Shown piece by piece: positions 3,047 to 55,136 of a stretch of DNA of 64,000 nucleotides (position 1 is its first letter; every line of letters starts with the position of its first letter). This DNA is from a virus. The notes beneath the pieces were generated by a model that was given only the letters and a program-made list of their open reading frames with translations, was not told the origin of the DNA and made no database searches. The DNA lies in the IMG/VR virus record IMGVR_UViG_3300046001_006061, positions 2,928 through 66,927 of that record. The stretch is one strand, 5' to 3'. Position numbers and translations under genes: made by a program.

Positions 3047-3427
3047 TTATTGCGGAGTAGCCCATTCGTTATCTATTTCTTTACTTCGTATATCTTTAAA
3101 GTTTTCTATGTTTGTTTCAGTAAAACTTCCCCACCCAAATACTTGTGTAAAGGATTTACCGCTTTCGTATAGTACGGTTTTAGGTATCATTTCAGTATTA
3201 AATATAGTTCCTATTGGGTATTTTTCTACTCTGCCAATATCAGATTTGCCGTTAAAACTAAGTATAACTTCAACTATTCTTCCGTAGGTTTCGTATGATA
3301 CAAATACCTCTAATGCTTGCCATTCTTTACCGTCTTTTTTTACTCCGTTTTTGAATGATAGTATTTTTTCAAGTTTTACTTTTGTGGTCATAGGTTTAAA
3401 AAGGATATTTAGAAAGCGAATGTTCAA
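3047..3427 (-). CDS. DUF3127-like OB-fold putative ssDNA-binding protein (likely start MTTKVKL)
   Basis: G.KKDGKEWQ...FTQVFGW pattern resembling 48565-48963. Confidence 0.45.
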   Translation of the reverse strand: MNIRFLNILFKPMTTKVKLEKILSFKNGVKKDGKEWQALEVFVSYETYGRIVEVILSFNGKSDIGRVEKYPIGTIFNTEMIPKTVLYESGKSFTQVFGWGSFTETNIENFKDIRSKEIDNEWATPQ

Positions 3428-13568: not shown

Positions 13569-14379
13569 ATGAATAACATAAAAAATACAATATCGTTTCA
13601 ATTGATTAATGAAGAGGCAAGGGAGCTAAGTTGGAAAATACAAAATACTATTTATGTAATAAAAAAAGGTGATAGTTTATTTAATTGCCTAAGTATTGAA
13701 GATGGTGAAATTTTAGCTATATGGAAGCAAGGGAGTAGTCAGCAAATAGAGCAAAACACATTTAAAAAATAAAATTATGAAAAATCAAAAACAGCATTTT
13801 GAAAGTATGGCAAATAATTACCTTAATGACAATATTTCAGATTTTCGCACCGATTTAAAGAAACTAAACAGAAGCGACTTGTTGAGATTCGTTTTACATT
13901 GTGAGCTGTATTGGAATGACTTATTAAACATTTACGAAATAGAAAAACTGTTTAATAGCTAACAAACCACACAAACCAATTTTAAACCATTTAAGTAAAT
14001 TAGCTATTTTAGTAAATTTATAAAAATAATATTCGCACATCAATTAATCAAATAAAAAACACAAAAATTATGAAAGCAGTAAAATTTTTAGCACCAAACC
14101 AATGTTATTTTTTTCAAGATAACAAAATAGTATTTCAAAGCTACGAAACTATTATTTGCACTATTGAAAACTACGAAAATGGAAACGAACCGATAATAAA
14201 AATAACCGATTCGCAGCCACAAAGTAAAACCACAGCAAAATATTTAAATCAATTTTTGCAATTACACACAAGCTTTAAAAGCTATAAAGATATAAAATAG
14301 TGTTAAGGTTTCAAGTCCTTTAAATTGTGAGAACAGCCTTAAAACGGCTGTAAACAAACAACACAAAATAAAAATAATT

Positions 14380-15294
14380 ATGGAAACATTAACAGAAGTA
14401 TTGAAAAAAAATGATTTGCGTTTTACTATCAATTTGAATGATGATAAAACAAACTGTAAAATTGAAATTAATCTAAATGATGAATGTAAAAATGGTCATC
14501 AAGATTTTAGTATTACTGCTACATTTTGGCAAGTTGGCGAAGTAAGAAGCGACAGAAATATGATTGCGGGCGGTTGTTGTCATGATGATATTTTAAATAT
14601 TCGCCCTGACTTACAAATATTTGTTAATTTACATTTATGTGATTGGCAAGGCGTTCCAATGTATGCAGTTGAAAATGGATTTTATCATTTAAAAGAAGGC
14701 TTTAACAATACCAAGCCAAGCGAAGAAAGTTTTAAAACTAAATTTTGCGAATATTACAGATTGACTTTAAAACAGTTTGAAATATTAAGCAAGTCAGAAA
14801 ATAAAACGCATTACGCTATTTTATTAATGGATTTAGGTATTTTAGACCAATGGAAAGAAGAAGCAGACAAGGCAATTAAAATACTAGAAAATTTATGTAA
14901 TTGTGTTTTTATCTGTGATAGTGTAAAAAGCCAATTTAATGCACCCGCAGAGGCAGAAATTTACCAATTTAGAAAGAACTGTGAAGAAGGTTATTATTTG
15001 CCACAGAACCAAGAAAAAAGGCGAATAATGAAAATTCGTGCGGCTCGTAGTGCTGAAAAATTTAAAATTAAGCAAGAAATGGACAAAGCAATTTTAAAAG
15101 CTAAAATTGAACACTATGTTAAAAGCGCAGTTTTAAAAGGCGGTTTGTCACTTGATAATTTTATTTATTATTCTCATAGTTGCGAAGGCGTTTTTAATTG
15201 GAAAAATTATGGCAAACAAGTTACCGAAGCCGAATTTAACAAGTTTATGGAAGTTACAAAAATTGAAGGTATTACCTTTAAACTAGGCAAATAA
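14380..15294 (+). CDS. hypothetical early protein
   Basis: 304 aa; DECKNGH.DFSITA, GGCCHD, LHLCD..G.PMY Cys/His motifs. Confidence 0.75.
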   Translation: METLTEVLKKNDLRFTINLNDDKTNCKIEINLNDECKNGHQDFSITATFWQVGEVRSDRNMIAGGCCHDDILNIRPDLQIFVNLHLCDWQGVPMYAVENGFYHLKEGFNNTKPSEESFKTKFCEYYRLTLKQFEILSKSENKTHYAILLMDLGILDQWKEEADKAIKILENLCNCVFICDSVKSQFNAPAEAEIYQFRKNCEEGYYLPQNQEKRRIMKIRAARSAEKFKIKQEMDKAILKAKIEHYVKSAVLKGGLSLDNFIYYSHSCEGVFNWKNYGKQVTEAEFNKFMEVTKIEGITFKLGK

Positions 15295-19050: not shown

Positions 19051-19060
19051 TAGGAGAAAA

Positions 19061-19145
19061 TAACGGGCGGACGGTTTGGGCAGGCTGCAAACCTGACCAA
19101 CTTTCCACCCTAACCAACATCGCAGCTTGCTTAAACCGTATGTTA
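19061..19145 (-). repeat. attC-like site 1
   Basis: TAAC GGGCGG ACGGTTTGGGCAGGCTGC...GCAGCTTGCTTAAACCGT AT GTTA. Confidence 0.75.
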
Positions 19146-19204
19146 GAAGCAGTTAATTAAACCTTGTGCGTGGGGTTCACGCAAGTAAATTAGAAAATAA
19201 AATT

Positions 19205-19531
19205 ATGACATTTATTCATCAGCCAACAGAATTTGAAAAACAAAAAAATGATAAAGATTTTATAGAAAGATTGAAATCATTTTGTAAAAACCAATTAGAA
19301 GAAAAACCAAAAAAAATGAGTAATAAAGATAGAATTGATTATATCTCATTCCTTCATAAGCAAAATTTGAATGGAAGAGAAGATGAGGATACGCTTTTTG
19401 AAGCTGGTATAGAAGCTGGCATAACAGAAACAGAAGAGTTTATGTTAGAATTTATTGTTAGTTTAAATCTTCCATTTACTGAAGATGAAATTACGGAAAT
19501 GTTTAATAAATTTAAAGCAAATGCAGAATAA
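19205..19531 (+). CDS. cassette 1 ORF a, hypothetical
   Basis: ATG 19205 after the leader shared with cassette 8. Confidence 0.65.
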   Translation: MTFIHQPTEFEKQKNDKDFIERLKSFCKNQLEEKPKKMSNKDRIDYISFLHKQNLNGREDEDTLFEAGIEAGITETEEFMLEFIVSLNLPFTEDEITEMFNKFKANAE

Positions 19532-19802
19532 AACATACAGTGGGATACTAATTAAATATGTTAGAGATAACAATATGATTATTTGGAAAATAGAAGAATC
19601 ACTAGCTGCTTTAAATATTTATGTCGATTGTAAAGATGAAGATAAACTAACCGATTTAGATAATGAACGAAAAGTATATTTCAAACTCAAAAAAGTATTT
19701 ATGGGTAGAGAATATGGCGAAGATATGAATATGAATTTAGCATATAACCTAAGTTTTGAAATAAATGTCCAAGCGCAAAAGGCGGAAGCAAGCAAGGTTT
19801 AA
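19521..19802 (+). CDS. cassette 1 ORF b, hypothetical
   Basis: Overlaps the ORF a stop; ends in the shared 3' flank. Confidence 0.6.
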   Translation: MQNKTYSGILIKYVRDNNMIIWKIEESLAALNIYVDCKDEDKLTDLDNERKVYFKLKKVFMGREYGEDMNMNLAYNLSFEINVQAQKAEASKV

Positions 19803-19814
19803 TTTATTGCTTTC

Positions 19815-19941
19815 TAACGGTATCGGGGCTTGTAGCAGTAGGGGATTTTGAAAAACTACTGCTCAATTAACCACCACAGCCCAATAGAAGTAAAAGGCTC
19901 AAAACTTGCACTTCTGCCCCTATTGCTACAGACCCTTGTTA
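19815..19941 (-). repeat. attC-like site 2
   Basis: TAAC GGTATC GGGGCTTGTAGCAGTAGGGG...CCCCTATTGCTACAGACCCTT GTTA; near-copy of site 11. Confidence 0.8.
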
Positions 19942-19988
19942 GCGGTAGGTTTTTTCAAATCAAGGGTTAATTTTAAAAGTTACATAAA

Positions 19989-20234
19989 ATGTTCAAAAAG
20001 AAAATAACATATTTTGTACTATATTTTTTAGAAGGAAATTCAAATAATAAATATAGTGTTTATATGACATCTAATGTAGAAAGTACAAACTCCTCCGAAT
20101 TTAATTTGCATTTTAATAATCAATGCAAATTAAATTACGAAGAAAATACGGGTTTAAAAACTGATGAAGTGGTTATCGAAAGCATTCAAATGATTTCTAT
20201 TCAAGTTTCTTTGTTTGGGTGGCGTATTTTTTAA
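19989..20234 (+). CDS. cassette 2 ORF, hypothetical
   Basis: 81 aa between sites 2 and 3. Confidence 0.6.
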   Translation: MFKKKITYFVLYFLEGNSNNKYSVYMTSNVESTNSSEFNLHFNNQCKLNYEENTGLKTDEVVIESIQMISIQVSLFGWRIF

Positions 20235-20243
20235 ACTTACCGC

Positions 20244-20370
20244 TAACGTTTTCGGGCTTTGTGTCCGTTGGCGACTTAAACTACAAATGTTAAATTGAAA
20301 AACAAATATTGATATGAGTACAAAAATTAAATCGAAGAACGAAACCGCCAATGGCACAAAACCCGTGTTA
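20244..20370 (-). repeat. attC-like site 3
   Basis: TAAC GTTTT CGGGCTTTGTGTCCGTTGGCG...CGCCAATGGCACAAAACCCG T GTTA. Confidence 0.8.
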
Positions 20371-20607
20371 GGCGAAGTTATTGATAGCAAGGTTAATCAA
20401 TTGCTGTCTTTAAGTGATGAATTTATATTCCCTGCTTACTATTCACATTCAGGTAAAACAATGTGGAAGATTTCAAATGTTTATACAAAATACGGTTCTG
20501 AAACATTGGTTTTGTGTGGCGTTGATGAAGGTATTGAAACAGCAATTGATTTGGCAATAGAACACATTTCAAAAGCTAAAGATAAGTTCTATGGTGTCGG
20601 TGTATAA
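20314..20607 (+). CDS. cassette 3 ORF, hypothetical (starts inside site 3, stops on the TAA of the next TAAC)
   Basis: ORF track plus site coordinates. Confidence 0.65.
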   Translation: MSTKIKSKNETANGTKPVLGEVIDSKVNQLLSLSDEFIFPAYYSHSGKTMWKISNVYTKYGSETLVLCGVDEGIETAIDLAIEHISKAKDKFYGVGV

Positions 20608-20730
20608 CGTTTTGCGGCTTTATGCAGTAGCGGACTTAAACCAAAAAATTTGATATGGAAAACGAAATTATAAATACAGATAAAAGTTCATTAGAACCAC
20701 GAAATCCGCTATTGCTTAAAGCTGATGTTA
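20605..20730 (-). repeat. attC-like site 4
   Basis: TAAC GTTTTG CGGCTTTATGCAGTAGCGGA...TCCGCTATTGCTTAAAGCTG AT GTTA. Confidence 0.8.
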
Positions 20731-20966
20731 TAAGCCGTTTTGGTGAATGTAAGTACAGTTGTCAATTAACACACGAGCCAAGTTGGTTTCATACAATATT
20801 GATTAAAGACTTTAGCATTTATATCGAGGAATGGATGGATGATGAAGATAATGAAATTTGTGCAACAGTTTTTACAGGCGAGAAAAAAAATGCTAATGGC
20901 TTTGCAAATACCAACTTGGCTTTATTGTTGAATGATATTGAGGAGTTCGTTAAAAATGGCTTATAA
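20655..20966 (+). CDS. cassette 4 ORF, hypothetical (starts inside site 4)
   Basis: 103 aa; stop is the TAA of TAAC at 20964. Confidence 0.65.
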   Translation: MENEIINTDKSSLEPRNPLLLKADVISRFGECKYSCQLTHEPSWFHTILIKDFSIYIEEWMDDEDNEICATVFTGEKKNANGFANTNLALLLNDIEEFVKNGL

Positions 20967-21057
20967 CGTTTGGTGGCTTTGTGTCTGTTTGCCCCTTGCG
21001 CAAAGTTTCAAGTTTACCACAAATGTTGATGGGGCAAATAGCACAAAACCGCTGTTA
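20964..21057 (-). repeat. attC-like site 5
   Basis: TAAC GTTT...GGCTTTGTGTCTGTTTGCCCC...GGGGCAAATAGCACAAAACCGCT GTTA; near-copy of site 7. Confidence 0.8.
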
Positions 21058-21095
21058 TGCGTAGTAGCGGATTATTAACGATAAATTTAATTAAA

Positions 21096-21563
21096 ATGAT
21101 GAAACATAAACAAAAACAACCTTACGGATGCGGTTTATATGCCGTTGCAAACGCCTGTAATTTAGACAACTTTATTACAGATGAAAGACTTGAAAAAAGT
21201 AAAACAGGAAATGTAATAGGGCAACTTTCAAAGTGGATGCAAGAAGATGGACACCCATTTTACATTGATACGCTTTACTATAACCACGTTGGAAAAAAGT
21301 TACCTAAAACGGCATTGGACTATAAACCAAGTGGAGAAGGAATACATTTTTTGCCTGTGCTTATAAATGTAAGATTTTCTGATGAAGGGAAAAATCATTT
21401 AGTAGGTGGGAAAATTGACAAAGAAGGCAAATTATATTTATACGATAGCCTTAAAGAAGAAATGATTGAAACAACGATGAGGCAGGTAAACAGAATGTAT
21501 CATCACGTTTACGGGTTGTTTTTGTTTATGGGTGTTGATAATGGAGAATATGTCTTTATATAG
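21096..21563 (+). CDS. cassette 5 ORF, papain-like cysteine peptidase
   Basis: Q..PYGCGLYAVAN nucleophile helix, NHLVG, LYLYDSL (Cys-His-Asp). Confidence 0.6.
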   Translation: MMKHKQKQPYGCGLYAVANACNLDNFITDERLEKSKTGNVIGQLSKWMQEDGHPFYIDTLYYNHVGKKLPKTALDYKPSGEGIHFLPVLINVRFSDEGKNHLVGGKIDKEGKLYLYDSLKEEMIETTMRQVNRMYHHVYGLFLFMGVDNGEYVFI

Positions 21564-21584
21564 CAGTAACGTAGCTATTACGCA

Positions 21585-21672
21585 TAACGTTTTGCGTATA
21601 TGAGAAGTGGCACTTGCAGAATGTTGAAAGTTAGCACGAATGTTTCTGTGCCATTTCTTATATACGCTGTTA
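21585..21672 (-). repeat. attC-like site 6
   Basis: TAAC GTTTT GCGTATATGAGAAGTGGCAC...GTGCCATTTCTTATATACGC T GTTA; near-copy of site 10. Confidence 0.85.
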
Positions 21673-21708
21673 TAAGCAGCCTTTTTATTAACTTAAATTA
21701 AAAACAAA

Positions 21709-21981
21709 ATGAGAAACTTTAAAACAAAAATTGAAGGACACGAAGAAGAGTTTGACTTTGAATGTTACGAAAATACAGAATCAATAGAAATTGGAGATAA
21801 ATATATTTTCTTTTTTGGTGGTATTGCAGACGTTCAAGTATGCGACTCTGAAAATGTAAAAGAAGAAGTAAACAAACACAATAGACCTTATCAGTACGAT
21901 AAAATTGATTTAACACACAATTTTTGGACTAAGTGTTTTAAAATTAAAGAAACAAATTTTGACCTTAGTACGGTTTTATAA
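21709..21981 (+). CDS. cassette 6 ORF, hypothetical
   Basis: 90 aa. Confidence 0.65.
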   Translation: MRNFKTKIEGHEEEFDFECYENTESIEIGDKYIFFFGGIADVQVCDSENVKEEVNKHNRPYQYDKIDLTHNFWTKCFKIKETNFDLSTVL

Positions 21982-21990
21982 GGTTGCTTA

Positions 21991-22084
21991 TAACGTTTTG
22001 CGGCTTTGTGTCTGTTTGCCCCTTGCACAAAAGTTTCAAGTTACCACAAATGTTGATGGGGCAAATAGCACAAAACCGCTGTTA
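21991..22084 (-). repeat. attC-like site 7
   Basis: Same family as site 5. Confidence 0.85.
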
Positions 22085-22136
22085 TATGCCGTTGTGGGTT
22101 GTCAAAAGGAATTTTAAAACTTAATAATTAAAAAAT

Positions 22137-22742
22137 ATGTATAAATGTAATATTTGTCCTGCTGAATTTAAAACAGAAAAGGGATTATCAAACCACAAAT
22201 GTAGGTGGATATGTAAAATATGTGGAACTAAACTTACCACACCAAAAGGTTATGATAGGCACTTGCAAAATCATAGTAACTCTGAAACAAGAAAAAAAGA
22301 ACAACAGATAAAGCAGGTTGAAGCACAAAAACAAAAAGATGAAGAATTTGCAATAAAATATCAAAAATTGATTGATATGGGTTTATTTAATCCATTACAT
22401 AATTCTGGCGATAGTGTTATTGTTTCTACATATATTGTAACAAAGCCAACTCACGAACAAAGGTTTAATAGAATGGTAAGAGTTCGGTATGAAGAGGAAA
22501 GAAGGTATGATGTATTTGATTGGATAATAGACAAAGCAATAGAACCAACAATTAACGATTTGTATAGGATTAATAATTGTATTGAGTTGAATAAACAATA
22601 TCCAATTCAATATTTAACAAAGAATTTTAAAGTAATTTCTGAATCCAATATTTTTCAAGATAGAACCAAAGCTATTGATGAGGCAACTAATAAAGGTAAA
22701 CAATATAAAGAGGCTTGTGACTTTGCTTCTATGTGTCGCTAA
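22137..22742 (+). CDS. cassette 7 ORF, tandem C2H2-type zinc-finger protein
   Basis: YKCNICPAEFKTEKGLSNH and CKICGTKLTTPKGYDRHLQNH. Confidence 0.7.
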   Translation: MYKCNICPAEFKTEKGLSNHKCRWICKICGTKLTTPKGYDRHLQNHSNSETRKKEQQIKQVEAQKQKDEEFAIKYQKLIDMGLFNPLHNSGDSVIVSTYIVTKPTHEQRFNRMVRVRYEEERRYDVFDWIIDKAIEPTINDLYRINNCIELNKQYPIQYLTKNFKVISESNIFQDRTKAIDEATNKGKQYKEACDFASMCR

Positions 22743-22752
22743 CAATGGCATA

Positions 22753-22840
22753 TAACGGGCGGACGCTTGCATTGCAGGTTGCAAAAACAATAATTATTCC
22801 TTACAGTAACTTGTCAGCAACTTGCTGCAAGCGTATGTTA
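22753..22840 (-). repeat. attC-like site 8
   Basis: TAAC GGGCGG ACGCTTGCA..GCAGGTTGC...GCAACTTGCTGCAAGCGT AT GTTA; family of site 1. Confidence 0.75.
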
Positions 22841-22899
22841 GAAGCAGTAAATTAAACCTTGTGCGTGGGGTTCACGCAAGCAAATTAGAAAATAAAATT

Positions 22900-23307
22900 A
22901 TGAAATCAACAGAAGAAGAAAAGAAAAAAGAAAAAATAGTTCAATCCGCTTACGGTAATCTTTATGAAAAATATAAAATAAACATAAATAAATACAGCGG
23001 ATTCACAGATACAAAAGAGGAAAAATTAGGATTCTCGCCATTGTCTGATGAAATTGAATATTTGGATTTTACTTGTAGTAATTTATGGAGACCAATTTCG
23101 TTAAAAGGAATAGAAAATAATAATGGGTGGATACGTATTGATAATAAACAATCAATTGAAAAAATAAATTATGTTGGATGGGCGTTCATACGTGTTTGTC
23201 GTGAAAATATTGAAGATATTTATTGTGAATATGTAGCAAATTCAATAGGCTATTTCTATGCTACTCATTACCAACCAATAATAAAACCTAAATCACCTCA
23301 TTTTTAG
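22900..23307 (+). CDS. cassette 8 ORF, phage hypothetical with DUF551-like C-terminus
   Basis: NNNGWIRI...ATHYQPIIKP. Confidence 0.6.
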   Translation: MKSTEEEKKKEKIVQSAYGNLYEKYKININKYSGFTDTKEEKLGFSPLSDEIEYLDFTCSNLWRPISLKGIENNNGWIRIDNKQSIEKINYVGWAFIRVCRENIEDIYCEYVANSIGYFYATHYQPIIKPKSPHF

Positions 23308-23348
23308 CGCAAAAGGCGGAAGCAAGCAAGGTTTAATTTATTGCTTTC

Positions 23349-23426
23349 TAACGTTTTCGGGCTTGGCGAAGTGGCTTTTGTGCGTTGGCTTGTGTGTCGG
23401 GAAGCCATTTTGCCAAACCCGTGTTA
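23349..23426 (-). repeat. attC-like site 9
   Basis: TAAC GTTTT CGGGCTTGGCGAAGTGGCT...AGCCATTTTGCCAAACCCG T GTTA; arms shared with site 12. Confidence 0.85.
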
Positions 23427-23486
23427 TACGCTGGCACGGGTAATTTAGTAGGAACTTAATTTGAAACACAAATAAAAATCAAAGCA

Positions 23487-23792
23487 ATGGCAACAGCAAT
23501 TTATGAAATACCGAACTCCGTAAAGGAAATGTTTGAACAAGGCGAAAATAGTTATCGCATAATTGACTATTCAATACAGGAAATGGACAATATCCAAAGT
23601 ATGCAACATTTCCTTGACTGCATAGGTGCAACAAGCGATAATATTGAAACAGACGATGGAACGCAAGTGGTAATTATTCATCCTGACTTTGACCACAAAC
23701 TTGTAATTGATAGTGGTGGGTTGGGCGATTTTTATTCTCACGGTTATGACGTAACTCTCTATTCGGAGACGGTCAGTAGTGCTTGCGTATAA
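23487..23792 (+). CDS. cassette 9 ORF, acidic hypothetical protein
   Basis: 101 aa; stop is the TAA of TAAC at 23790. Confidence 0.65.
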   Translation: MATAIYEIPNSVKEMFEQGENSYRIIDYSIQEMDNIQSMQHFLDCIGATSDNIETDDGTQVVIIHPDFDHKLVIDSGGLGDFYSHGYDVTLYSETVSSACV

Positions 23793-23877
23793 CGTTTTGC
23801 GTATATGAGAAGTGGCACTTGTAGAATGTTGAAATTTAGCACAAATGTTTCTGTGCCATTTCTTATATACGCTGTTA
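23790..23877 (-). repeat. attC-like site 10
   Basis: Near-copy of site 6. Confidence 0.85.
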
Positions 23878-23946
23878 CCTGCTGGTGCGGTTAATTTAGT
23901 AGAATTTTGATTTGAAAACGAATAGAAAATTTAAAAAGTTTTAGAG

Positions 23947-24192
23947 ATGGAAACACAAAAAATGTATGGAGTAGAATATAAAACAGATAGCAGTTCTACT
24001 TATGAAATATTTGAAAATTACGATGATGCGTTAGCTTTTGCTAATAGTAATGAAAATGCTATGTTTTTATTTACAGCAGACTTTAATAAGGACAGAGTTT
24101 ATTTAGATAGTGAAACTTGGAATTACGATGATTTTACCGACACTTTTATTAACCAAGAAATAATTGAAACTTATGAAATATATGGGAAGTAA
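23947..24192 (+). CDS. cassette 10 ORF a, acidic hypothetical protein
   Basis: 81 aa, D/E-rich. Confidence 0.6.
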   Translation: METQKMYGVEYKTDSSSTYEIFENYDDALAFANSNENAMFLFTADFNKDRVYLDSETWNYDDFTDTFINQEIIETYEIYGK

Positions 24193-24940
24193 GGCGAGAT
24201 TTAGTAAAGAGATTTTGCCGATAATATTAAAAGACAGAACAGCCGACCAATGGTATGTTGAGCCATTTGCAGGTGGAATGAACGCAATTTGTGATGTAGA
24301 TGGCAATAGACTTGCTAATGATAAAAACTACCACTTAATTGAAATGTGGAAAGGATTAACAAATGGCGTTAAATACCCAACAGACATACCAAAAGATTTG
24401 TATGACCTTGCAAGAGATGTTTATAATGGTAGAGAAACAAGGTTTGAACACAAAATGAATATGGCTGATGATATGGTGGGTTGGATTGGTTGGATGGGTT
24501 CTGCAAATGGTAGATTTTTTGATGGTGGATATTCTGGTAAATCAAATACCAAAATTGGAACGGTAAGAAATTACATTAAGGAAGCAATAAGTAATATTGA
24601 AAAGCAATTACCAAAGATGGTAGGTGTTAAATTTGAGAACAAAGATTATACTGAATTGCTATTACCCAATAACAGTATTATTTATTGCGACATTCCATAT
24701 CAAGGAACAAAACAATATTCAACATCAAAAGATTTTAACCATTCAAATTTTTGGAAATGGTGCAGAGAAAAGGCAAAGCAAGGACATACAATTTTTGTAA
24801 GTGAATACGAAGCACCTGCCGACTTTGAATGTGTTTGGCAAAAAGAGGCTAAATCTTCTTTATCGGCAAATGGTGTAATAGGTGGTAATAAGGTGAGTGT
24901 GGAAAAACTTTTTAAATTTTCTCCCACAAATGCTAATTAG
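24173..24940 (+). CDS. cassette 10 ORF b, Dam/D12-class DNA adenine methyltransferase
   Basis: KYMGSK, YVEPFAGG, AND.N, IYCDIPY, FVSEY. Confidence 0.9.
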   Translation: MKYMGSKARFSKEILPIILKDRTADQWYVEPFAGGMNAICDVDGNRLANDKNYHLIEMWKGLTNGVKYPTDIPKDLYDLARDVYNGRETRFEHKMNMADDMVGWIGWMGSANGRFFDGGYSGKSNTKIGTVRNYIKEAISNIEKQLPKMVGVKFENKDYTELLLPNNSIIYCDIPYQGTKQYSTSKDFNHSNFWKWCREKAKQGHTIFVSEYEAPADFECVWQKEAKSSLSANGVIGGNKVSVEKLFKFSPTNAN

Positions 24941-24964
24941 AAGCACGAATGTAGCACTTGCAGG

Positions 24965-25091
24965 TAACGGTCTGGGGCTTGTAGCAGAAGGGGAATTTGA
25001 AAAACTACTGCGCAATTAACCACCACAGCCTAATAGAAGTAATAAGGCTCAAAACTTCCACTTCTGCCCCTATTGCTACAAACCCTTGTTA
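24965..25091 (-). repeat. attC-like site 11
   Basis: Near-copy of site 2. Confidence 0.8.
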
Positions 25092-25139
25092 GCGGTTCGG
25101 GCTTGTTTTCACAAGGGTATAAATTTTAAATAAATAAAA

Positions 25140-25376
25140 ATGTCAGAGAAAAAAGTATCAGTTACCATTAAGTGTAAACAAGTAATGCACTTTGCTCAAA
25201 GTGTTGAAATGTCCGAAAGTGATTATGAGAAAATCAAAGATTTGGATTTTGAAGATGTCCACGAAATAAGAGAAAGAGAGCAGTATTCAGTTATTGAAGG
25301 ATATCTGAATTTTATGGATATTCTTGAAAGCGATGATGAATTTTTAGATGTCCAAATTACCAAAGATGAAGATTAG
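25140..25376 (+). CDS. cassette 11 ORF, acidic hypothetical protein
   Basis: 78 aa. Confidence 0.6.
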   Translation: MSEKKVSVTIKCKQVMHFAQSVEMSESDYEKIKDLDFEDVHEIREREQYSVIEGYLNFMDILESDDEFLDVQITKDED

Positions 25377-25400
25377 TAGGGTGTTTTTTAGCCTGACCGC

Positions 25401-25520
25401 TAACGTTTTCGGGCTTGGCGAAGTGGCTGAACGCGAAGCTAAATAGAATTACAAAACTTTAAAATTAAAAACGAATGATTGATAGAATTACTGAACAGCC
25501 ATTTTGCCAAACCCGTGTTA
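25401..25520 (-). repeat. attC-like site 12
   Basis: Arms as in site 9, longer loop containing the ATG of the next ORF. Confidence 0.85.
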
Positions 25521-26248
25521 GTGGCAGTACTTTTGTGAACGCAGACTGCTTTGATGTTTTTCCTTTTATTGAGGATAAATCAATTGATGCGATTATTTGC
25601 GATTTGCCTTATGGAACTACTGCTTGTAAGTGGGATAGTATCCTGCCATTAGACAAACTTTGGAATGAATACAAGCGTGTTTTAAAGCCAAACGGTGTTA
25701 TTTTACTTACTGCTTCGCAACCATTTACAACTGTTTTGATTGGAAATGATTTGAAAATGTTTAAGTATAATTTAGTTTGGGATAAAGTAGCTGTTACAAA
25801 TCCGATGTTGGCTAAAAAACAACCTATGAGATGCCACGAAGATGTATTGATTTTTTACGATAAGCAACCAACTTACAACCCACAAATGAGAGTAGGCGTA
25901 AAATGGAGTAGAGCAGGAAAAAAACAACATACAACAGATACTTTAGGGCAAAGCACGTTGTTTAATAATGGAAGCGATGAAAGTGAAATGAAATACCCTA
26001 AAAGTATTATCACATTTTCAAATGCTGACAAAACAAAAAACGAACATCCAACTCAAAAACCGATTGACTTAATGGAATGGTTGATTAAAACATATACAAA
26101 CGAAGGCGATATGGTATTAGACAATACAATGGGTTCAGGAACAACAAACTTGGCTTGTATTAAATTAAATCGCAAATCAATTGGAATAGAAAAGGAAAAA
26201 CAATATTACGATGTTGCTGTTCGGAGGGCTTCGGAGTATTGCCACTAA
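25475..26248 (+). CDS. cassette 12 ORF, N4/N6 (beta-class) DNA methyltransferase
   Basis: SIDAIICDLPYG, HPTQKP, VLDNTMGSGTT, GIEK. Confidence 0.92.
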   Translation: MIDRITEQPFCQTRVSGSTFVNADCFDVFPFIEDKSIDAIICDLPYGTTACKWDSILPLDKLWNEYKRVLKPNGVILLTASQPFTTVLIGNDLKMFKYNLVWDKVAVTNPMLAKKQPMRCHEDVLIFYDKQPTYNPQMRVGVKWSRAGKKQHTTDTLGQSTLFNNGSDESEMKYPKSIITFSNADKTKNEHPTQKPIDLMEWLIKTYTNEGDMVLDNTMGSGTTNLACIKLNRKSIGIEKEKQYYDVAVRRASEYCH

Positions 26249-26269
26249 CTATGTGATTGGCGCAACAAC

Positions 26270-53842: not shown

Positions 53843-53957
53843 TGTTTTTTTATGTCGTTTTTCTTGACGTTTCAAATATATAAATAAAAAATGCTATATG
53901 CAATTTTTTTCAAAAACTTCACATAGCTTCTGTTAGCTGCCACCTTTAGGACAGAGT

Positions 53958-54563
53958 ATGAGAGACAATAAAGGACAATTAGAATTATTAGGTTTCTTAA
54001 AAGACAACTACCATAACGGAGATGTTAATATTGCGCCTATTCTGAAAAAAATAAGCGAATTACATAATTTTGACTACAACGACATAAAAACGTATTGTCT
54101 AAATCCATTAAGAGATAAGGGTTATATGAAAGACTGTAATTATAGCGACTTGGGTGGTTTAAATAAAAGTATTCGGGCTACTTATGACAATACAAGAATA
54201 CTTACTTGTTTGACGGAAAAGGGATATAATTATTTATTTAATTTAGACAATCATGAATTATCTAAACAGCTATCACTATCCACGTTAGAAACGAACAAGG
54301 CTATAAAGACTGCAAGTATAATTCAATGGGTTGCTGCGGTTTCCACTGTTTTAATTATTTCCGCTAATTGTATAATTGATTTTTTAAATTACGACTTTAA
54401 CAAAGCAACACATCATACATCATATATGCAACAGCAGAAAGACTCGACAGACAAAGAAGCTCAAAAAAGACTACTCGACACACTGCATATTTATCGCCAT
54501 CAAATTGACAGTCTTGTGTTATTGGGTAAGACAAAAAAGCAAGTATTTTCCAAACCAAAATAG
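53958..54563 (+). CDS. cassette ORF, winged-helix-like N-terminus plus TM helix
   Basis: L..KGY...LTEKGY; hydrophobic IIQWVAAVSTVLIISANCII. Confidence 0.6.
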   Translation: MRDNKGQLELLGFLKDNYHNGDVNIAPILKKISELHNFDYNDIKTYCLNPLRDKGYMKDCNYSDLGGLNKSIRATYDNTRILTCLTEKGYNYLFNLDNHELSKQLSLSTLETNKAIKTASIIQWVAAVSTVLIISANCIIDFLNYDFNKATHHTSYMQQQKDSTDKEAQKRLLDTLHIYRHQIDSLVLLGKTKKQVFSKPK

Positions 54564-54624
54564 TGTGTGCCGACAACGTAAAACGACACTCATTAACTAA
54601 ACTCACACTTAAACAAAAAACAAT

Positions 54625-54831
54625 ATGACAACAAAATTTAAAATTGGCGACACTGTTAAACTAAAATCAGGCAGCCCAGTAATGACAATTACCAATACAA
54701 AGGTTTGGAAAAGAGTTGAAAAGAAACTTGATTGGGACGAAACTTATGCTGAATGCACTTGGTTTGACATCGACAACAAATCACATACAAAAGAGTTTCC
54801 AAAAGACGCTTTAGAAAAAATTAACGACTAA
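54625..54831 (+). CDS. cassette ORF, YodC/DUF2158-family protein
   Basis: FKIGDTVKLKSGSPVMTI...CTWFD...F...AL. Confidence 0.85.
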   Translation: MTTKFKIGDTVKLKSGSPVMTITNTKVWKRVEKKLDWDETYAECTWFDIDNKSHTKEFPKDALEKIND

Positions 54832-54964
54832 GGTAATATACCCTAATTCCTAAGAAATAAACGTGCAATTCTTTTTTGTCTGAATCTCTAATCACTCTAA
54901 CAATGCTTGACAAAGTACCGTATTTAAATTTTGACATTATGTTTTTATACATAAGGCGAGCAGC

Positions 54965-55082
54965 TAACAGCACCCTTGCGAAAATTTGCTACCTCTCGGA
55001 ACTACTGCTCCTATTGGCTTTTTTCTGCGTTGACAACTTCGTGTTCCAATACCGCAAACTATCGCAAGGCTGCGAAACGTTA
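54965..55082 (+). repeat. attC-like site 13
   Basis: TAAC A GCACCCTTGCGAAAATTTGC...GCAAACTATCGCAAGGCTGC GAAAC GTTA; reverse-complement architecture of array sites. Confidence 0.8.
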
Positions 55083-55136
55083 TTGCAAATGTAATATAAA
55101 ATACCATACAAACAAGTAAAAAGAATGATATTTTCG

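Follow-up and report, generated by a model that had tools for sequence, protein, structure and literature searches.

Cassette array and paired cassette ends

The window, the whole 64,000-nucleotide stretch of viral DNA analyzed here, holds 12 cassettes with attC-like hairpins (TAAC...GTTA) between them at 19058-26249, together with one isolated cassette. Phage sequence lies directly to the left of hairpin A0, the first array element, and the array opens with a hairpin body. At the other end, cassette 12 terminates in TAAC with no hairpin beyond. Features are listed below; end positions are numbered from the G of GTT (5′ end) and the C of AAC (3′ end).

19058..19148, +, hairpin site A0 (TAAC...GTTA); model R1, 46.7 bits, and fold
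19142..19818, +, cassette 1; two small ORFs; ends aligned by hand
19812..19944, +, hairpin site A1, 133 nt, same subfamily as A10; model match and fold
19938..20247, +, cassette 2; 15-nt ends whose sole difference is position 11 (G/T)
20241..20373, +, hairpin site A2; ATG of the next ORF (20314) inside the loop
20367..20608, +, cassette 3; the exception, end pairing stops after GTTA
20602..20733, +, hairpin site A3; ATG of the next ORF (20655) inside the loop
20727..20967, +, cassette 4; 15-nt ends, position 11 G/T; stop codon is the TAA of TAAC
20961..21060, +, hairpin site A4, 100 nt, subfamily with A6
21054..21588, +, cassette 5; 15-nt ends, position 11 G/T
21582..21675, +, hairpin site A5, 94 nt, subfamily with A9
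21669..21994, +, cassette 6; 15-nt ends, position 11 G/T
21988..22087, +, hairpin site A6; type matched in at least 37 cultured Flavobacterium phage records
22081..22756, +, cassette 7; C2H2 zinc-finger protein at 22137-22742; 15-nt ends, position 11 G/T
22750..22843, +, hairpin site A7, subfamily with A0
22837..23352, +, cassette 8; end family and upstream hairpin family as cassette 1, downstream hairpin differs
23346..23429, +, hairpin site A8, 84 nt, subfamily with A11
23423..23793, +, cassette 9; position 10 T/T, position 11 G/T
23787..23880, +, hairpin site A9
23874..24968, +, cassette 10; D12-class adenine DNA methyltransferase at 24164-24940; position 10 T/T, position 11 G/T
24962..25094, +, hairpin site A10
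25088..25404, +, cassette 11; G/T once a one-base bulge is allowed, aligned by hand
25398..25523, +, hairpin site A11; ATG of the methyltransferase ORF (25475) inside the loop
25517..26249, +, cassette 12; N6_N4 DNA methyltransferase at 25475-26248; 15-nt ends, position 11 G/T
26250..26266, +, flank adjoining the terminal TAAC; matches a motif that unrelated phages keep at the ends of their arrays
54962..55085, −, isolated hairpin site downstream of a 1950-aa ORF; model R1, 36.6 bits, E 2e-6
53932..54968, −, isolated cassette; ends cognate, with G facing T past a one-base bulge

Cognate inverted ends were found in 11 of the 12 array cassettes, with G at position 11 of the 5′ end and T at position 11 of the 3′ end. 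The sequence-only reading had described six stems as perfect except for this G.T, and these are present as quoted, identical over 15 nt apart from position 11, in cassettes 2, 4, 5, 6, 7 and 12; the extra T10.T that it listed for cassettes 9 and 10 is also present. For cassettes 1, 8 and 11, the G/T it had proposed is recovered in a hand alignment once a one-base bulge is allowed, and the stems of cassettes 1 and 8 then extend to 25 nt. Cassette 3 (20367-20608), which it did not mention, has ends that are unpaired past GTTA. The arms vary at positions 5-7 and 13-15 yet stay matched, in keeping with its view of the stems as cassette-specific and covarying. The isolated cassette, for which it had reported the G.T on the minus strand, was located; aligned by hand, C-G stands opposite C-A past the bulge. 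Its two ORFs are both encoded on the + strand, in antisense orientation relative to the site, and the cassette ends in TAAC without a hairpin after it.

A fixed odd pair at position 11

Wider loci were retrieved by a hairpin-arm motif, with the cassette ends not used for retrieval. The viral set (80 other loci plus the window) contained 138 cassettes lying between two successive detected sites. Their unique end pairs numbered 136: 111 passed a pairing filter (at least 8/9 identical at positions 1-9), and 25 failed and were excluded. The same filter removed 11 of 64 bacterial end pairs, leaving 53. Together with 12 cassettes of the cultured phage filifjonk9-1, the filtered total is 176, a count whose members may share descent and are not all independent events. 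Paired cassette ends are confirmed as real throughout a large integron-like cassette family of Bacteroidota phages and bacteria. The family was seen in 80 viral loci and 67 bacterial stretches, and also in at least 37 records of cultured Flavobacterium phages.

Across the three filtered sets, the ends were identical in 91-100% of cassettes at positions 1-9 and in 66-100% at positions 12-15. The viral set (n = 111) gave 94-100% at positions 1-9, 62% at position 10 (T/T in 27/111), a single identical case at position 11, 89, 87, 90 and 72% at positions 12 to 15, and 18-35% at positions 16-30. Aligning many cassette ends, as the sequence-only reading had suggested, placed the position-11 mispair far above that at the other positions of the arm (1/176 identical). 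The viral cassettes carried G/T in 93, C/T in 10, T/T in 7 and A/T in 1; none of the 53 from bacterial contigs was identical (G/T 40, C/T 10, T/T 3), and neither was any of the 12 from filifjonk9-1. The 3′-end base was T in 176/176, with G as its partner in 145 and a Watson-Crick pair in one. T at −11 of the 3′ end is the invariant element, and its partner is a non-A base, preferably G. The rule still holds in the 26 cassettes with the ORF on the other strand (G 20, C 4, T 2). The earlier suggestion of a structural or strand-selection determinant therefore survives in part: the asymmetry tracks site polarity and not gene direction, but what is invariant is T at −11 and not the G.T pair. Because a Watson-Crick pair occurs in only 1/176 filtered cassettes, the odd pair is under strong selection, and because its asymmetry follows site polarity, it fits a DNA-level role in strand or arm selection.

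The two ends that flank one hairpin in an array pair over a median of 4 consecutive nucleotides (n = 216; G.T counted), as opposed to a median of 10 for cognate ends, 56/144 of which reach 15 nt (G.T counted). The full stem therefore exists only in the excised circle, as had been proposed. The array context leaves only 4 bp of the R box for excision of units.

The stems had also been presented as reaching well beyond the R box of classical attC. Pairing of 9-11 consecutive nucleotides, beyond the 7-nt boxes, has already been reported for classical cassettes (Bouvier 2009, PMC2727003), so what is new is the pairing at positions 12-15 and the obligatory non-pair. Phage attC clusters have likewise been published: Qi et al. 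2023 (PMC9892861) describe CALIN in phages, which resemble the present loci in their attC-like arrays with methyltransferase cassettes in virulent phages and which include a Bacteroidota phage, Polaribacter phage P12002L. Section 3.4 of that paper contains no extended end pairing, position-11 rule, unit polarity or cognate recombinase. In the P12002L genome, two weak model matches lie on either side of a methylase cassette. The ends of this cassette form a 24-nt pairing in which a T.T is followed, at the homologous place, by G facing T. The position-11 rule itself turned up in no earlier report and is apparently new.

Mobile unit, recombined strand and candidate recombinase

Comparisons between genomes show that units move as a single imperfect hairpin (G...T) together with the cassette downstream of it (GTTA...TAAC), with the crossover inside the TAAC 5′ of the hairpin. 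The cultured Flavobacterium phages mumin6-1 and mumin6-4 differ by one hairpin plus cassette, with a junction ambiguity of TAACGTT, and two more indels, bounded alike, separate filifjonk from mumin6-1. Within this phage's own population, runs X1 and X2 each contain one contig in which 24964-24968 is connected to 26246-26250, the junction being ambiguous by 4 nt; this 24968-26250 joined variant has a depth of ∼21 vs ∼50. The four independent indels share only 4-8 nt at their junctions, each at TAAC. One filifjonk/mumin6-1 indel falls exactly between the terminal TAAC and the flank, showing that an array can take up new units at the boundary of its last TAAC and the conserved flank. Away from contig edges, arrays start with a hairpin in 26 cases and not in 9, and end in a cognate TAAC without a hairpin in 39, with no partner found in 11. 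Where the same cassette has new neighbors (window cassettes 1 and 8; 2/2 cross-locus pairs), the upstream hairpin is retained.

Given this unit and crossover, the strand bearing the G.T is the recombined strand. The exchanged strand, which is the + strand in this array, reads T.G at position 11 together with the conserved hairpin G.T pairs, which are kept at alignment columns 8/145 (12/12 hairpins) and 28/131 (10/12). The hairpin alignment has 22 predicted pairs, 14 of them with compensatory changes, and matched no Rfam family; hairpin subfamilies recur inside arrays. The active strand gives the more stable fold in 164/219 sites, and one of the four conserved non-Watson-Crick hairpin places (C opposite an invariant A, 7 nt before GTT) would favor the other strand. 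Phage ORFs lie on the G.T strand in 115/138 cassettes, and the first ATG of the main ORF is inside the upstream hairpin in 46/127 phage units; ORFs of bacterial contigs occur on either strand (33 vs 26). Compared with a canonical integron, the phage genes therefore run in the opposite orientation.

Five bacterial replicons and three phage loci have XerA-like recombinases without the integron-integrase insert next to arrays of this kind, and the link to the recombinase is gene adjacency in these 8 loci. The best integron-integrase-like gene lies within ∼2 kb of the sites in 4/4 bacterial genomes tested and in one Chryseobacterium plasmid, and the recombinase ATG is 41-53 nt from the terminal TAAC in 3/3 phage loci with mapped arrays. 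The IntI insert is missing from all array-adjacent recombinases. Against TIGR02249 (cut-off 265) they reach 94-204 bits, as compared to 402 bits in one continuous stretch for the canonical control, and their best family match is NF040815 (XerA-type; 160-224 bits). The IntI insert contacts attC sites by reading their extrahelical bases. Its interaction with attC sites has been reported (Escudero 2016). The recombinase gene is absent from the examined stretch in 115/120 viral loci, and no tyrosine recombinase was found in the window's record (CheckV 51% complete) or in 3 complete Muminvirus genomes.

The system shares with classical integrons its imperfect hairpins, which run from AAC to GTT and leave a spacer by the triplet unpaired, the cassette-specific complementarity between both ends of one cassette, the crossover at a conserved triplet, the entry of new cassettes at the array end beside the recombinase gene, and methyltransferase genes among the cassettes. 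It departs from them in the arm of up to 15 nt with its obligatory non-pair, in recombinases below the IntI cut-off, in true bulges on the cleaved 5′ arm, and in phage genes on the recombined strand with start codons often within the hairpin. Folded single-strand substrates of Xer recombinases are known, and Xer/dif-type sites resemble those described here in having an arm of ∼11 bp beside a short central region, a XerA-type enzyme match, and a terminal flank resembling a degenerate second arm. Unlike Xer/dif, however, these sites form gene-cassette arrays with many variants, have covarying arms separated by a hairpin body, and lack a chromosome-dimer-resolution context.

Proposed roles of the odd pair and the terminal flank

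On balance, we lean toward the reading, drawn from sequence patterns, that the recombinase uses the fixed odd pair to choose which arm to cut in the folded site. In an attC-like recombination site folded from a single strand, the 15-nt stems would form the outer (R-box) arms; the site would be part of an integron-like system of Bacteroidota and their phages. The enzyme would probably be a XerA-like tyrosine recombinase without the canonical integron integrase insert and, because none is present in the window's record, may be supplied by the host or another phage. It is predicted to bind an arm of ∼11 bp with an outer consensus of T-K-R-C (positions −11 to −8) on the cleaved strand. T-11 of every 3′ end would mark the cleavable arm and keep it recognizable in the folded circle, and after each insertion would also keep the new duplex arm recognizable at the integration site. 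With a non-A base at position 11 of the 5′ end, the complementary strand would never present T at −11 in its mirror arm, which should therefore be uncuttable. The preference for G may reflect a wobble that leaves the helix intact on the active strand. Both the recombining strand and the side would then be set by the odd pair, the full stem being confined to the excised circle, and it is plausible that this pair favors integration over excision. Points that weigh against this reading are the missing recombinase gene in the window's record and the Muminvirus genomes, the 4-bp R box left in arrays, the hairpin C opposite A, the bulges on the cleaved arm, the unpaired ends of cassette 3 and the end pairs that the filter excluded.

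A possible but rather doubtful alternative, not exclusive of arm choice, is that the odd pair is a structural mark certifying the folded circle junction as opposed to duplex DNA, with a flipped or kinked T-11 read by the recombinase in the manner of extrahelical bases. An invariant T facing G, C or T would suit such a mark, as would the frequent lack of pairing at position 10 (T/T as above, bulges in window cassettes 1, 8 and 11), the restriction of the stem to the circle, and the use of extrahelical T and G by canonical sites (Bouvier 2009, PMC2727003). However, G, the preferred partner, distorts the helix least of all mismatches, the recombinases beside the arrays are missing the insert with which extrahelical bases are contacted, and the duplex arm beside the terminal flank has the same T Watson-Crick paired, yet units still enter there. 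It is unlikely that the pairs instead reflect RNA structure in phage transcripts (processing, stability or translation), with the hairpins being regulatory. The predominance of phage ORFs on the G.T strand, the start codons frequent in hairpin loops and several conserved G.U-type pairs would agree with this, but the asymmetry follows site polarity in 26/26 cassettes with the ORF on the other strand, bacterial-contig ORFs take either strand, indel bounds fall exactly at TAAC, and Rfam offers no match.

We give very little weight to the mismatch being a functionless by-product of cassette making or of biased mutation (a trace of genesis, or deamination). Nothing beyond its constancy speaks for this, whereas the arms vary at positions 5-7 and 13-15 yet covary, so that many lineages have kept the same exception at one place, and a single mutational path cannot explain the C and T partners that also occur. 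Homologous or microhomology-mediated shuffling of accessory genes has been proposed for the promoter-stem-loop cassettes of T4-type phages. That hairpin repeats drive such shuffling of phage accessory genes here, without any site-specific system, is the least credible reading. It could draw on the recurrence of hairpin subfamilies within arrays and on the many viral loci without a recombinase gene in the examined stretch, but it gives cassette-specific inverted ends no role, and it must contend with junctions of only 4-8 nt, each at TAAC, with recombinase genes at a fixed distance from the termini, and with recombination of the sites of the related Polaribacter phage P12002L by IntI1 (Qi 2023, PMC9892861).

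With moderate support from its sequence, the flank at 26250..26266 may be an attI-like second arm. The motif is kept in 39 distinct termini, 22 of which have A where position 11 would fall; by PWM, the expected register was best in 12/39, and 23% scored above the shuffled 95th percentile.

Cassette array and mobile unit

The window derives from a linear viral record of 66.9 kb, estimated by CheckV to be 51% complete, and its genes include a large terminase and tail-fibre proteins. A cassette array and one outlying site were located in it:

19058-26249, plus strand: cassette array, 12 imperfect hairpins of 84-133 nt alternating with 12 short gene cassettes
55085-54962, minus strand: isolated hairpin site beside an isolated cassette, an additional match to R1, the covariance model built from the window hairpins

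Hairpins of the array start with TAAC-G and end with T-GTTA, and among the window sites compensatory changes were found in 14 of 22 consensus pairs. All 12 sites are imperfect inverted repeats with AAC/GTT boxes and a hairpin fold, as attC sites are. R1 was used in place of an ungapped hairpin detector, which missed every site because of the bulges. Viral relatives were retrieved with a 16-nt motif derived from the hairpin arm rather than the ends of cassettes; it matched at least 119 viral-contig stretches, 80 of them listed as loci. Across the window and those 80 loci R1 returned 213 non-redundant sites, with TAAC and GTTA both present in 201, a count that refers to our own model and not to that of IntegronFinder. 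A cluster of attC sites lacking an integrase is known as a CALIN, and the 12 sites called by R1 (19058-25523) form such a cluster of two or more sites, with no integron integrase nearby.

Among virulent Flavobacterium phages in culture, near-identical isolates were found to differ by entire units. Phage mumin6-1 carries an extra hairpin and cassette of ∼500 nt as compared to mumin6-4, with a junction ambiguity of TAACGTT, and filifjonk9-1 contains two further blocks with the same bounds, one of which is inserted precisely where the terminal TAAC meets the flank. A unit-11/12-deleted variant also coexists in the population of the window's phage. In two lake-water sequencing runs (X1 and X2), where sampled words of the array were present at shares of 0.94 and 0.92, a variant contig joins the TAAC of cassette 10 (24968) straight to the flank (26250) with a 4-nt ambiguity, skipping the 1281 nt of units 11 and 12, N6_N4 methyltransferase cassette included; the depth of the variant was ∼21 vs ∼50. 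Two other runs (X3 and X4) were left out, as they held only parts of the array (shares of 0.20 and 0.17) and short joints from related hairpins in other organisms.

Away from contig ends, arrays start with a hairpin in 26 cases vs 9 without, several of the 9 having borderline hairpin energies, and finish with a cognate TAAC without a hairpin in 39 cases vs 11 in which no partner was found. The indels, together with the way arrays start and finish, therefore identify the unit as a hairpin plus its downstream cassette. In an integron, crossover falls at a conserved triplet and the unit comprises cassette and site; here, the limits of four natural indels fall within TAAC, and crossover takes place within the TAAC of the 5′ arm on the plus strand as drawn. 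The isolates lillamy9-1 to 9-7 (MN812212-MN812218), with genomes of 38268, 38007 or 37531 bp, carry the same hairpin at 3069 or 3508, which suggests further unit gains or losses among near-identical phages.

In integron cassettes the ORF occupies the top strand and its attC site comes after it. Phage arrays depart from this order; among 138 cassettes the ORF lies on the recombined strand after its hairpin in 115, with 8 on the opposite strand and 15 unclear. On bacterial contigs the ORF strand is split 33 vs 26 with 7 unclear, and two integrase-adjacent arrays (bacterial loci L201 and L204) have ORFs in the canonical sense. In 46 of 127 phage units, counted by a first-ATG heuristic, the main ORF has its first ATG within the upstream hairpin, and in 28 of the 127 the TAA of TAAC serves as stop codon; both counts fit a unit of hairpin plus downstream cassette. 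Three window ORFs show the former arrangement, their frame crossing the 3′ arm of the hairpin and the GTTA box:

20314, 20655 and 25475: cassette ORF starts in the loop of the upstream hairpin

A motif past the terminal TAAC is common to 39 distinct array termini of unrelated phages (T+1 in 30, A+7 in 24, T+8 in 34, A+9 in 25, C+12 in 24, G+13 in 25, A+15 in 27 and A+16 in 22), and two integrase-adjacent bacterial arrays finish with the same motif, ∼100 nt from the recombinase gene. The window copy is as follows:

26250-26266, directly after the terminal TAAC: flank motif

Support is moderate for a reading in which the motif, taken in register, resembles the arm in inverted, degenerate form and has A where position 11 (counted as defined below) would fall; in a position weight matrix test of the flank as a second arm, the expected register was best in 12 of 39 flanks. 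Possible identities of the motif, which frequently makes up the left half of a small palindrome, are an attI-like second arm, a terminator and a control region of the recombinase gene.

Position 11 of the cassette ends

Counting runs inward, position 1 being the G of GTT at the 5′ end of a cassette and the C of AAC at the 3′ end. The sequence-only reading had quoted six stems as pairing perfectly except for a G opposite T at position 11, and these proved exact, with 15 nt identical save position 11, where the 5′ end has G and the 3′ end T. Its finer details are likewise present, namely an extra T/T at position 10 in cassettes 9 and 10 and, by hand alignment, the same G/T pair after a one-base bulge in cassettes 1, 8 and 11 and in the isolated minus-strand cassette. 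Cassette 3 (20367-20608), absent from that reading, is the only array cassette with ends unpaired beyond GTTA, and may be a fusion product or may have lost an internal site. Cognate ends of one cassette pair over a median of 10 consecutive nt and reach 15 in 56 of 144 cases; ends flanking one hairpin in the array pair over a median of 4 (n = 216).

The earlier claim that the mispair is specific to this position was to fall if larger sets showed it no more often there than elsewhere. It clearly survives, since viral, bacterial and cultured-phage sets all keep the mispair. In the viral set, 138 cassettes between consecutive sites gave 136 unique end pairs, of which 111 cleared a filter requiring identity at 8 or more of the 9 positions 1-9; among the 25 dropped pairs are missed sites, variants with bulges and ends that truly do not pair. 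Identity among the 111 was 94-100% at positions 1-9, 62% at position 10, 89, 87, 90 and 72% at positions 12-15, and 18-35% at positions 16-30. At position 11 a single cassette was identical (G/T 93, C/T 10, T/T 7, A/T 1). Bacterial contigs yielded 66 cassettes, 64 unique and 53 past the filter, with position 11 identical in none of the 53, and in filifjonk9-1 all 12 cassettes past the filter, from a total of 13, have G/T. Polaribacter phage P12002L is reported to carry an attC cluster (PMC9892861); the ends of its methylase cassette pair over 24 nt with a one-base bulge and a T.T, followed by G opposite T at the homologous place. An energy scan of a canonical plasmid integron (L205) for attC hairpins, aimed at a possible odd pair near position 11 in classical cassettes, returned one weak candidate.

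The plus strand as drawn carries T.G at position 11 and, in the window hairpins, G.T beside GTT (12/12) and a further G.T (10/12); in 164 of 219 sites it is the strand with the more stable fold. The recombined, T.G-bearing strand here is the 'bottom' strand in the terms of classical integrons. In integrons, the extrahelical bases that direct strand choice are on the arm opposite the cleaved one. In the present sites, conserved non-Watson-Crick bases occur on the 3′ arm before GTT (T at -1 in 217, A at -7 in 216 and T at -15 in 213 of 219), and true bulges are located on the cleaved 5′ arm. The same cassette was found in different loci as two pairs only, too few for statistics.

Recombinases beside related arrays

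No tyrosine recombinase was found in the window's record (66.9 kb; PF00589, TIGR02249) or in three complete Muminvirus genomes, and the window is also free of phage-type recombinase remnants, the best tblastn E-value being 0.11. A recombinase homologue is present in 5 of 120 viral stretches, and at three viral loci with mapped arrays its ATG lies 41, 53 and 53 nt past the terminal TAAC. A gapped two-arm motif retrieved 67 stretches of bacterial genome contigs, nearly all labelled Bacteroidota, that carry arrays. In each of four bacterial genomes examined, the integron-integrase model has its best match no more than ∼2 kb away from sites; this also applies to a finished Chryseobacterium plasmid (L204), where the match is 65.9% identical to the L201 recombinase.

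The array-adjacent recombinases are 266-347 aa long and match NF040815 (XerA type) best, with 160-224 bits. Their TIGR02249 scores are 94-204 bits, below the cut-off of 265, and come from two stretches with model positions ∼180-235 skipped; a canonical integron integrase used as control reaches 402 bits in one stretch and contains ∼40 residues that they lack. The skipped region is the IntI-specific insert, which is reported to interact with attC sites (PMC4792948). The system works like an integron, yet an adjacent integrase with the IntI-specific additional domain was not found beside these arrays, and by that membership test it falls outside the class. Arrays of this kind are now annotated as hypothetical proteins, and tools requiring the IntI-specific domain would label them integrase-less clusters.

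Two platform layouts were seen. At L200 (bacterial) and phage loci L030, L035 and L043, a recombinase of 266-305 aa is divergent from the array, in the canonical orientation; at L201-L204 a recombinase of 344-347 aa with an N-terminal extension of ∼70 aa is co-directional, its 3′ end toward the array. Other mobile elements lie within one integrase-adjacent array, and the intron among them brings to mind the group II introns that target attC sites:

15762-17078 of L204 (NZ_CP041688.1): group II intron reverse transcriptase/maturase and IS110 transposase, inside the array

Strand choice

For integrons, a central question is the way in which a recombinase selects one of the strands of a folded site. 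Integrons exchange a single, folded strand, and replication resolves the product; in classical systems, the strand is chosen through extrahelical bases together with a dedicated protein insert. The present comparisons establish that the arms exist and covary and that T is invariant and A excluded opposite it (one A/T in 111 viral cassettes); they also establish the mobile unit, the region of crossover, the bias between strands and the presence of recombinase genes next to related arrays. A mechanism can be built on these, in which the recombinase would bind an arm of ∼11 bp whose outer part includes the T at -11. That T would be obligatory in the 3′ end of each cassette, and would have to stay because the 3′ end becomes the duplex arm of the integration site after insertion. 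Avoidance of A at position 11 of the 5′ end would keep the mirror arm of the opposite strand from ever being a substrate, and G would be preferred opposite T because a wobble keeps the helix. The asymmetric pair would take the role of the classical extrahelical bases, for an enzyme without the part that interacts with them. We tentatively propose, giving the full scenario somewhat less than an even chance, that Bacteroidota and their phages run a parallel integron-like system whose Xer-like recombinase never gained the IntI insert that reads extrahelical bases; that strand and side are chosen by the asymmetric position-11 pair in an arm of 11-15 bp, with T on the cleavable arm and never A opposite; and that virulent phages possess the integration site, in some cases the recombinase as well, and exchange anti-restriction methyltransferases and further early genes through this system.

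The main rival holds that the T is a flipped base that reports structure, and it overlaps with the reading of the T as a determinant of arm choice. An explanation at the level of RNA is argued against by the cassettes whose ORF is on the other strand, since in 26 of 26 the asymmetry tracks the polarity of the site and not the ORF strand. Elements of the IS200/IS605 type have a Y1 (HUH) transposase and subterminal hairpins and insert 3′ of a fixed tetranucleotide. The units here resemble them in inserting 3′ of TAAC; they differ in having one large hairpin and cassette-specific inverted ends, and the linked enzymes are tyrosine recombinases. An IS200/IS605-like element was rejected, as the window's record has no PF01797 match and hence no Y1 transposase, and both this and a MITE-like reading were set aside given cassette-specific inverted ends and the absence of target duplications.

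Parts of this picture have precedents. Clusters of attC sites in phages, methyltransferase cassettes included, were published before (PMC9892861), R-box pairing extends to 9-11 nt in classical cassettes (PMC2727003), and Bacteroidota are among the groups listed with integrons (PMC8618304). In the literature searched, with supplementary tables (Qi 2023 S1, S2, S4; Nilsson 2020 S13) outside its scope, no description was found of the position-11 rule, of Flavobacterium-phage arrays of this type, of a 15-nt arm with an obligatory non-pair, of the unit's polarity, of insert-less recombinases beside arrays, or of cassette polymorphism among cultured virulent phages. Within the available text of the Flavobacterium-phage paper (PMC7077304), the words integron, hairpin and palindrome occur 0 times; the same text links methyltransferase content to plating efficiency on alternative hosts. 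A large natural family seems to solve strand choice differently, with one invariant asymmetric pair and linked recombinases without the insert, and virulent phages of abundant aquatic Bacteroidota gain from it a mechanism of cassette exchange. The rule is simple enough for testing by point mutation, and cassette exchange in phages can be addressed directly with the phage-host pairs already in culture.

The window hairpins correspond to no Rfam family, and the sole Rfam match in the window is a ribozyme located elsewhere:

14298-14366, plus strand: type-P3 twister ribozyme, 55.1 bits vs a gathering score of 39.9

It sits 14 nt upstream of ORF 14380-15294, whose sole match is phrog_17696, a PHROG of unknown function. 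Within the array, the protein of cassette 7 (22137-22742) contains C2H2-type zinc fingers (PF13894, E-value 5e-8), which are unusual in phage genes.
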